Source: Escherichia phage WPEC6
Length of the DNA: 64,000 bases
Sequence record: PV763039.1
Direction: 5' to 3' (one strand)
Shown here piece by piece: positions 27,474 to 27,545 of the stretch; the stretch's first letter is position 1; every line of letters starts with the position of its first letter. The position numbers were made by a program, and so were the translations under genes. The notes beneath the pieces are model-generated. The model had not been told where the DNA came from and made no database searches. It worked only from the letters and a program-made list of their open reading frames with translations.

Positions 27474-27545
27474 TCCCGTTAGACTTACAGGATAAGAGTT
27501 CCACAACTTATTGTGATGCTGGTTCGAATCCAGCACGGGATACCT
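27474..27545 (+). other. tRNA-like element / probable tRNA pseudogene
   Basis: perfect T-arm gctgg-ttcgaat-ccagc and 6-bp acceptor pairing but no canonical anticodon arm; ends CCT not CCA. Confidence 0.3.

Follow-up and report, generated by a model that had tools for sequence, protein, structure and literature searches.

Elongator tRNAs decode with a 7-nt anticodon loop that has a U33 turn and a purine at position 37, and RNase P, the 3' trimming enzymes and the CCA-adding enzyme recognise the acceptor/T-arm helix and the D/T-loop elbow of tRNAs. In phage T4, the stable small non-tRNA RNAs species 1 and species 2 are co-transcribed and co-processed with the phage tRNAs, and their function is not known. 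The tRNA-like domain of tmRNA lacks a functional anticodon but retains the top half of a tRNA, acceptor and T arm. Phages with recoded stop codons have in-frame stops in their genomes and encode suppressor tRNAs with a 7-nt loop and the anticodon at positions 34-36. tRNA-like or 'pseudo' tRNA genes are also already known from phage clusters. Finally, both defences that target tRNAs and tRNA-based counter-measures of phages are documented (PMC10264068, PMC11464382, PMC11555353, PMC12445682), among the latter tRNAs that evade anticodon nucleases by mutations in the anticodon loop (PMC10264068) and tRNAs that neutralise PARIS or retrons (PMC11464382, PMC11555353). The element described here bears on the current debate about why tRNAs are carried by phages and how these withstand tRNA-targeting defences.

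We analysed 64,000 nucleotides (the window) of Escherichia phage WPEC6 (PV763039.1), a phAPEC8-like coliphage of the genus Phapecoctavirus, subfamily Stephanstirmvirinae. The + strand of the window carries a tRNA cluster (25702-27627) in which ARAGORN calls ten tRNAs and Rfam eleven. Between its last two tRNA genes, tRNA-Ile and tRNA-Met, lies an element that a preliminary description had noted as tRNA-like but non-canonical. The element and its surroundings are composed as follows.

27020-27049, + strand: predicted sigma-70-like promoter (TTGACA-18-TATAGT, 11/12) upstream of tRNA-Gly, from a consensus scan only
27397-27470, + strand: tRNA-Ile(GAU), upstream neighbour called by ARAGORN and by Rfam (72.2 bits); its CCA ends 2 nt before the element
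27473-27545, + strand: the whole tRNA-like element, 73 nt, supported by the minimum free energy (MFE) cloverleaf, the Rfam tRNA model and the family model R1
27473-27479, + strand: acceptor 5' strand UUCCCGU; position 1 (27473) stands opposite U27541 as a U.U mismatch
27480-27501, + strand: U8-A9, D-arm region GACUUACAGGAUAAGAGUU and linker C, with U8 at 27480 and GG at 27490-27491
C27484:G27496, U27485:A27495 and U27486:A27494, + strand: D-region pairs conserved in the family
27502-27515, + strand: hairpin resembling an anticodon arm, with stem CACAA (27502-27506) / UUGUG (27511-27515) and loop CUUA (27507-27510)
27516-27517, + strand: variable region AU, 2 nt, where canonical tRNAs have 4-5 nt
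27518-27534, + strand: T arm GCUGG-UUCGAAU-CCAGC, pair probability 0.997-0.998
27535-27545, + strand: acceptor 3' strand ACGGGAU (27535-27541), discriminator A (27542) and CCU (27543-27545)
27549-27627, + strand: tRNA-Met(CAU), downstream neighbour called by ARAGORN and by Rfam (50.1 bits); it starts 3 nt past the CCU of the element
27743-27770, + strand: hairpin resembling an intrinsic terminator, AGCCUCC-UUAUU-GGAGGCU (27743-27761) followed by a U run

The MFE fold of the element is a cloverleaf of -20.8 kcal/mol (z = -2.69), and 2 of 200 shuffled sequences fold equally well. The Rfam tRNA model (RF00005) spans the element end to end (model positions 1-71) with 25.2 bits and E = 0.0015 in a 141-nt search, a hit found with relaxed thresholds, the gathering score of this model being 29 bits. 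The element is absent from the ARAGORN calls and from the Rfam calls at the gathering threshold. The earlier observation is confirmed, and the individual features described before were accurate, namely six Watson-Crick pairs between tcccgt (27474-27479) and acggga (27535-27540) next to the U.U at 27473:27541, a perfect T arm, a 5-bp stem with a 4-nt loop (cacaa-ctta-ttgtg), which is also present in the MFE fold, and a CCT 3' end (A-CCT, 27542-27545) in place of an encoded CCA. A second proposal, that the stem might open into a 10-nt loop, was rejected on the ensemble pair probabilities of the hairpin (0.40-0.68) and on stem covariation in its relatives. The D-arm register is ambiguous in the single-sequence fold. 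Together with the homology described below, the fold is beyond chance.

Compared with a canonical elongator tRNA (RF00005), the element shares the acceptor of seven positions, the elbow bases (U8 and G18-G19 in the D loop), the 5-bp T stem with its UUCGAAU loop, a discriminator base and a place in a tRNA operon whose genes stand a few nucleotides apart. It differs in having a 4-nt loop instead of a 7-nt loop with U33 and purine 37, a variable region of 2 nt instead of 4-5 nt or a long arm, a shifted D-stem register, a U.U at 1:72 that leaves the acceptor short of 7 bp, and CCU at its end. Like the tRNA-like domain of tmRNA, it consists of an acceptor/T-arm top half without a functional anticodon, but it has C3:G70 rather than the G3:U70 alanine identity pair and lacks an mRNA-like domain; assignment to tmRNA was ruled out by C3:G70, and neither ARAGORN nor Rfam called a tmRNA. 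T4 species 1 and 2 are, unlike the element, longer and not full cloverleaves, and a sequence relationship to them is not expected. With the suppressor tRNAs of stop-recoded phages the element has in common that it is phage-encoded and contains TTA in its loop region, but its loop has 4 nt and TAA is the main terminator in the window. The tRNAs that escape anticodon nucleases or neutralise PARIS and retrons resemble the element in that their loops depart from those of the host, yet they are decoding tRNAs with 7-nt loops (PMC10264068, PMC11464382, PMC11555353), whereas the family to which the element belongs cannot decode normally.

The region around the cluster (25600-27800) is 100% identical in phages WPEC4 and WPEC2 and 97-99.8% identical in dozens of others. 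The element is likely part of a predicted transcript Gly-Gln-Pro-Ile-element-Met that would run from the promoter-like site at 27020-27049 to the terminator-like hairpin at 27743-27770. The record of phage ASO2A marks the same terminator site as a rho-independent terminator; the promoter-like site is a prediction from a scan in which the total number of such sites did not exceed shuffle expectation. No GenBank record that we opened annotates the element as an RNA, and in the 60 BLAST records listed nothing but the edge of tRNA-Ile or a short 'hypothetical protein' is annotated over it.

The same cluster contains three further unusual units on the + strand. The first (26088-26178) resembles a tRNA-Ser(UGA) with the loop CUUGAAA and a GCCA end and is annotated by tRNAscan-SE in ASO2A. 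It is missed by ARAGORN and by the Rfam tRNA model, its best Rfam match being tRNA-Sec with 37.4 bits at a gathering score of 47, and it is highly conserved (1 of 91 columns substituted). The second (26399-26483), similar to tRNA-Tyr(GUA), is called by Rfam (39 bits) and not by ARAGORN and is named 'tRNA-Pseudo-GTA' in the record of Mt1B1_P17 and tRNA-Tyr in others; it is probably functional because none of its columns is substituted in eight genomes. The third (26586-26663), uncalled but tRNA-shaped, stands between tRNA-Asn and tRNA-Thr. Its acceptor is GGACUUG/CGAGUCC, its long anticodon-like arm contains an internal loop and ends in a 4-nt tip, and its T arm carries an 8-nt loop UAUCGAAU. 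Its fold has z = -2.77 and the family model R1 gives it 20.7 bits; ARAGORN makes no call, the Rfam tRNA model finds nothing at E up to 0.1, and within the genus it is conserved like the true tRNAs (1 of 78 columns substituted).

Other parts of the cluster vary among isolates. An insertion of about 88 nt that does not look like a tRNA and is without counterpart in the window lies between tRNA-Gln and tRNA-Pro (window point 27309-27313) in phAPEC8, ASO2A, ESCO5, REC, ev052, DIJ07P1 and nieznany (L003 2009-2101; L030 104-196). The adjoining tRNA-Pro(UGG) (27314-27390) occurs in Phapecoctavirus as two clearly different alleles with 23 variable columns, counted in a sample picked for low identity of the element, which suggests replacement by recombination rather than point mutation. 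The downstream tRNA-Met(CAU) (27549-27627) is flagged 'pseudo' by tRNAscan-SE in some records; because ESCO25 and phiWec188 carry a compensatory change in its T stem (27602 with 27614), we argue that it is functional. Between tRNA-Met and the terminator, 115 nt (27628-27742, + strand) have only 3 substituted columns and a mean pairwise divergence of 0.65%. This stretch has no annotated ORF in the records examined and folds unexceptionally (z = -1.23); it may correspond to a processed small RNA or to a functional 3' trailer.

A sensitive BLAST search with an 81-nt stretch matched the element in 77 phage records. Outside Phapecoctavirus, the matches lie in the Vequintavirinae phages A7_1, A73 and W70 (84% identity; E = 5e-15 for A7_1) and UPEC06 (80%), and in the siphovirus phiEB49, where a full-length match (78%, E = 7e-7) is annotated 'tRNA-Val' with the label tRNA-Val(AAC). 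The copies of A7_1 and UPEC06, the two Vequintavirinae loci that we read, directly follow tRNA-Tyr. Onward searches from these homologues gave reciprocal matches and added the Enterobacter phages SABI and SonariX and the Klebsiella phage 05F01, and further the N4-like Klebsiella phage KP8 with its relatives, the Klebsiella myovirus NDO71 and the N4-like Gamaleyavirus coliphages IME11, PBM-3, ST4, E20, SP5M and CU10EC. At least five unrelated groups of enterobacterial phages thus carry the same family in their tRNA clusters. Its members carry conflicting labels that rest on forced anticodon calls: Val in phiEB49, tRNA-Leu(CAG) in the KP8 paper (PMC6950046), 'tRNA-OTHER', 'tRNA-Thr' or nothing in Gamaleyavirus records. 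These 'pseudo', 'OTHER' or 'undetermined' tRNAs of Gamaleyavirus, KP8 and phiEB49 are true homologues of the element, from which they differ by loops of 6-9 nt, a CCA in most of them and a preserved 1:72 pair. ARAGORN fails on most homologues and assigns those of Gamaleyavirus to 'tRNA-???' with a two-base anticodon; where they pass the Rfam tRNA model, they score 33-41 bits compared with 54-70 bits for the adjoining true tRNAs.

We define the family by its UAGGCUUA..GG..AAG D region and odd anticodon loop. Common to its members are the D region UAG-G/A-CUUA..GG..AAG, a 5-bp anticodon-like stem, a variable region of 2-3 nt (AU or AC in most lineages, GAC or GAU in Gamaleyavirus) and an GGUUCGAAUCC T arm; T8, A9, G10, CTTA and the second G do not vary among the 23 family sequences, and the T arm and the elbow bases (U8, G18-G19) vary little or not at all. 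Most lineages other than Phapecoctavirus encode CCA and keep the 1:72 pair. No single aminoacylation identity is evident since the discriminator base varies (A, G or C). The anticodon-like loop is the sole part that varies in both size (3-9 nt) and sequence, and it is never canonical. Phapecoctavirus has CUUA, UUUA, CUA or UUU, and phiEB49 has UUAACAA, there on a bulged stem; the 9-nt loop RACUUAAGA is found in SABI and 05F01, AGGCAU (6 nt, or 8 nt with the closing pair open, (C)AGGCAU(G)) in KP8 and NDO71, and AAACCA or AAACUA (6 nt) in Gamaleyavirus. The loops of the Vequintavirinae, CGUAUCG and CGUCUCG, have seven bases but carry G33 and C37 and can close to a 5-nt loop.

Three observations were made beside members of the family or in scans for them. 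In Gamaleyavirus (L032-L038, about 583-660), a conserved 'tRNA-Ile' comes after the family member; its anticodon, AAU, is unusual for bacteria. Downstream of the KP8 member (L012 555-657) there is a weak match to permuted tmRNA (33.2 bits; gathering score 47). On two IMG/VR contigs of 85-102 kb (L014 430-525; L018 1786-1880) lies a different odd tRNA-like sequence whose D region starts with the same TAGGCTTA, whose GUCAG-AUA-CUGAC hairpin has a loop of 3 nt and whose T loop is enlarged.

Searches in other collections were directed at the origin and range of the family. A scan of IMG/VR with the D-region pattern returned only phiEB49 and three chance matches in non-tRNA sequence, and two scans with gapped patterns returned the known lineages (SABI-like, KP8-like, IME11, phiEB49), unrelated canonical tRNAs and the L014/L018 sequence. 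Among the matches listed from a string-pattern scan of bacterial and archaeal genomes were anticodon arms of tRNA-Leu(UAG). As BLAST of the element against 5,426 complete E. coli genomes gave nothing at E up to 1, the element is not host sequence. In BLAST searches for a canonical ancestor, four family members met other tRNAs over the T arm only, and the candidates suggested by eye, tRNA-Lys (T arm), tRNA-Leu(UAA) (CUUAA motif) and a tRNA-Thr D arm (L162), were not assigned. The closest relatives of the element outside its own genus are those of the Vequintavirinae, whereas the copy of 05F01, a phage of the same subfamily as the window, belongs to another subtype and has another position within the cluster; this suggests that the family has spread horizontally among lytic enterobacterial phages. 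In open-access papers and preprints we could not find a description of a family with this conserved shape and lineage-specific non-canonical loops; nor did our searches there find expression, processing, charging or transcript data for the family or its phages.

Conservation of the shape was assessed in 23 distinct sequences (alignment A2) against a hand-written cloverleaf, with 500 shuffles and controls in which pairing partners were slid along the alignment. Standard pairs fill 94.3% of the cells compared with 80.5% in shuffles, 11 of 20 pairs have changed on both sides, and the covariation score is 0.369 versus 0.142 in shuffled alignments; none of the 500 shuffles reached the observed values. 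Moving the partners by 1-3 columns reduced pairing to 31-48%. Covarying pairs were found in the acceptor (6 of 7), the anticodon-like stem (3 of 5) and the T stem (2 of 5), and all cells of the T arm are paired. The D-stem pairs, 97% paired, carry no covariation information because they are nearly invariant. The only systematically unpaired position is 1:72, solely in the eight distinct Phapecoctavirus sequences (U.U or U.C). Individual exchanges illustrate the pattern: CCC/GGG is UCC/GGA in A7_1, G6:C67 is A:U in IME11, the KP8 stem CAUAGC/GUUAUG is CGCAGC/GUUGCG in NDO71 around the same loop, and CCCAG/CUGGG of SABI is CCCAA/UUGGG in 05F01, likewise around an unchanged loop. The covariance model R1, derived from A2, scores members at 73-88 bits, including 86.3 bits for the element, and the best canonical tRNA at 46 bits; as the members are the training set, these scores show separation and not discovery.

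These data show that the acceptor, anticodon-like and T helices of the family are kept by compensatory change while size and sequence of the loop are not fixed. The view that the element is a pseudogene is consequently half right. It is not a working decoder, as this view implied, but neither is it a canonical tRNA that broke recently, because every lineage of the family has a non-canonical loop while the helices are maintained. Maintained helices together with a non-canonical anticodon loop in every lineage suggest that the tRNA-shaped RNA serves phages for a purpose other than translation. In practice, genes of this family should not be counted as decoding tRNAs in analyses of codon usage.

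How might a phage use a tRNA-shaped RNA that does not decode? We favour, at somewhat better than even chances, the explanation that the element is a non-decoding tRNA-shaped RNA gene, the most reduced of its family, in which the ability to fold is selected and which serves as an excisable module or is a residual mimic. The element would be co-transcribed from the promoter-like site at 27020-27049 within a Gly-Gln-Pro-Ile-X-Met precursor. RNase P and the 3' enzymes would be able to excise the RNA by its intact acceptor/T helix and elbow (U8, GG, UUCGAAU), and because these recognition features are intact it should be excised like its neighbours. The product would be a stable RNA of about 70 nt unable to pair with a codon. 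Selection in Phapecoctavirus would then act on shape or foldability and not on sequence, since an insert that misfolds 2-3 nt away from two tRNAs would disturb their maturation; as a folding, excisable module, the element would keep the processing of its neighbours, separated from it by spacers of 2-3 nt, in register. We infer this processing-module role from geometry alone. Alternatively, the element may have retained a weak, shape-dependent tRNA-mimic activity inherited from the family, a role that we likewise infer.

It is also possible, though we doubt it, that the Phapecoctavirus copy is a dead relic without function that drifts neutrally and persists because the time for its loss has been too short or because its deletion would harm the neighbouring tRNAs. 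The argument for such decay comes from the reduction of this copy and from its rate of change. It measures 72-74 nt compared with 76-78 nt elsewhere, ends in CCU or CAU where other lineages mostly have CCA, lacks the 1:72 pair and has the shortest loop, 2-5 nt shorter than in every other lineage; on these sequences, it is the most reduced, degenerate member of the family. In eight whole Phapecoctavirus clusters, selected on overall similarity, the element has 5 substituted columns of 73 (6.8%; mean pairwise divergence 3.0%), compared with 15 of 777 columns in the eleven canonical tRNAs (1.9%; Fisher p = 0.023 against the element) and 52 of 1053 in the non-coding spacers (4.9%; p = 0.41). In substitution density as well as divergence, the element thus matches the spacers and changes about 3.5 times faster than the adjoining canonical tRNAs. 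It stands out even among the odd units of the cluster, as the other three (26088-26178, 26399-26483 and 26586-26663) have 0-1 substituted columns each and are conserved like true tRNAs. Some isolates carry changes expected to damage a tRNA: G18 to A in ev052, a D-stem G to U that breaks a pair in DIJ07P1, an extra A in the T loop of ESCO25 and one-base deletions that leave 3-nt loops (ECML-183-2, phiWec188).

The distribution of the changes tends to speak against neutral drift. Among 11 variant events in 17 genomes, ten avoid the 32 nt of the stems (acceptor pairs 2-7, anticodon-like stem and T stem) and the remaining one, from A-U to G.U, is conservative (binomial p = 0.017). This avoidance of helices is suggestive, the events being few and the genomes closely related and not independent. 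Also against a relic, the element is kept in all 77 matched records, in a cluster that has undergone the 88-nt indel and the replacement of the tRNA-Pro allele nearby.

We consider it unlikely that the element is an active trans-acting mimic, that is, a processed RNA that binds a tRNA-recognising factor of the host such as a defence nuclease or a toxin acting on CCA ends and thereby shields the real tRNAs. Such a role would agree with the conservation of the shape across unrelated lytic phages of Enterobacteriaceae and with loops that differ between lineages and are stable within them (RACUUAAGA in SABI and 05F01, AGGCAU in KP8 and NDO71) on stems with compensatory changes; lineage-specific loops would then reflect different targets. 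However, the loops bear no consistent likeness that we could recognise to any anticodon loop of the host, and in Phapecoctavirus the loop itself is variable and the CCA is lost. Published counter-measures, moreover, are decoding tRNAs and not decoys, and the text of PMC10264068 mentions neither decoys nor tRNA-like RNAs. Extended to the whole family, the idea would make its members previously unrecognised anticodon-less mimics that lytic phages of Enterobacteriaceae exchange horizontally and that serve as decoys for, or competitively inhibit, tRNA-targeting immune effectors or toxins acting on tRNA ends, with loops tuned to each effector, which we regard as similarly improbable. Read as a decoy, the copy in Phapecoctavirus would either be pared down to a minimal 'elbow plus acceptor' form or be decaying.

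That the element is an unusual decoding tRNA, be it an ochre suppressor reading through UUA, as the preliminary description had entertained, or a reader of another codon with an opened stem, has a negligible probability: the TTA triplet in the loop region and the recurrence of an ACUUA motif in three lineages (the window, SABI/05F01 and phiEB49) speak for it, but with a loop of only 4 nt (3 nt in two isolates) the element cannot present an anticodon, U33 and purine 37 are missing, and the loop sequence is not conserved, with a C to U change within the genus. The stem that would have to open is supported by covariation; UUA occurs at positions 34-36 of a 7-nt loop in no homologue of the family alignment, and the only canonical register of the ACUUA motif reads U33-UAA (Leu) and not UUA. 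ARAGORN and Rfam reject the element as a tRNA, and ochre suppression by it is effectively excluded on the sequence evidence. For the window by itself this outcome is modest: phAPEC8-like phages have an unannotated tRNA-shaped gene that is real and does not decode, and the suppressor idea is removed. Under code 11, 49 of the 74 non-overlapping ORFs with 100 aa or more end in TAA, and since these long ORFs tile 63% of the window, it shows no sign of stop recoding.
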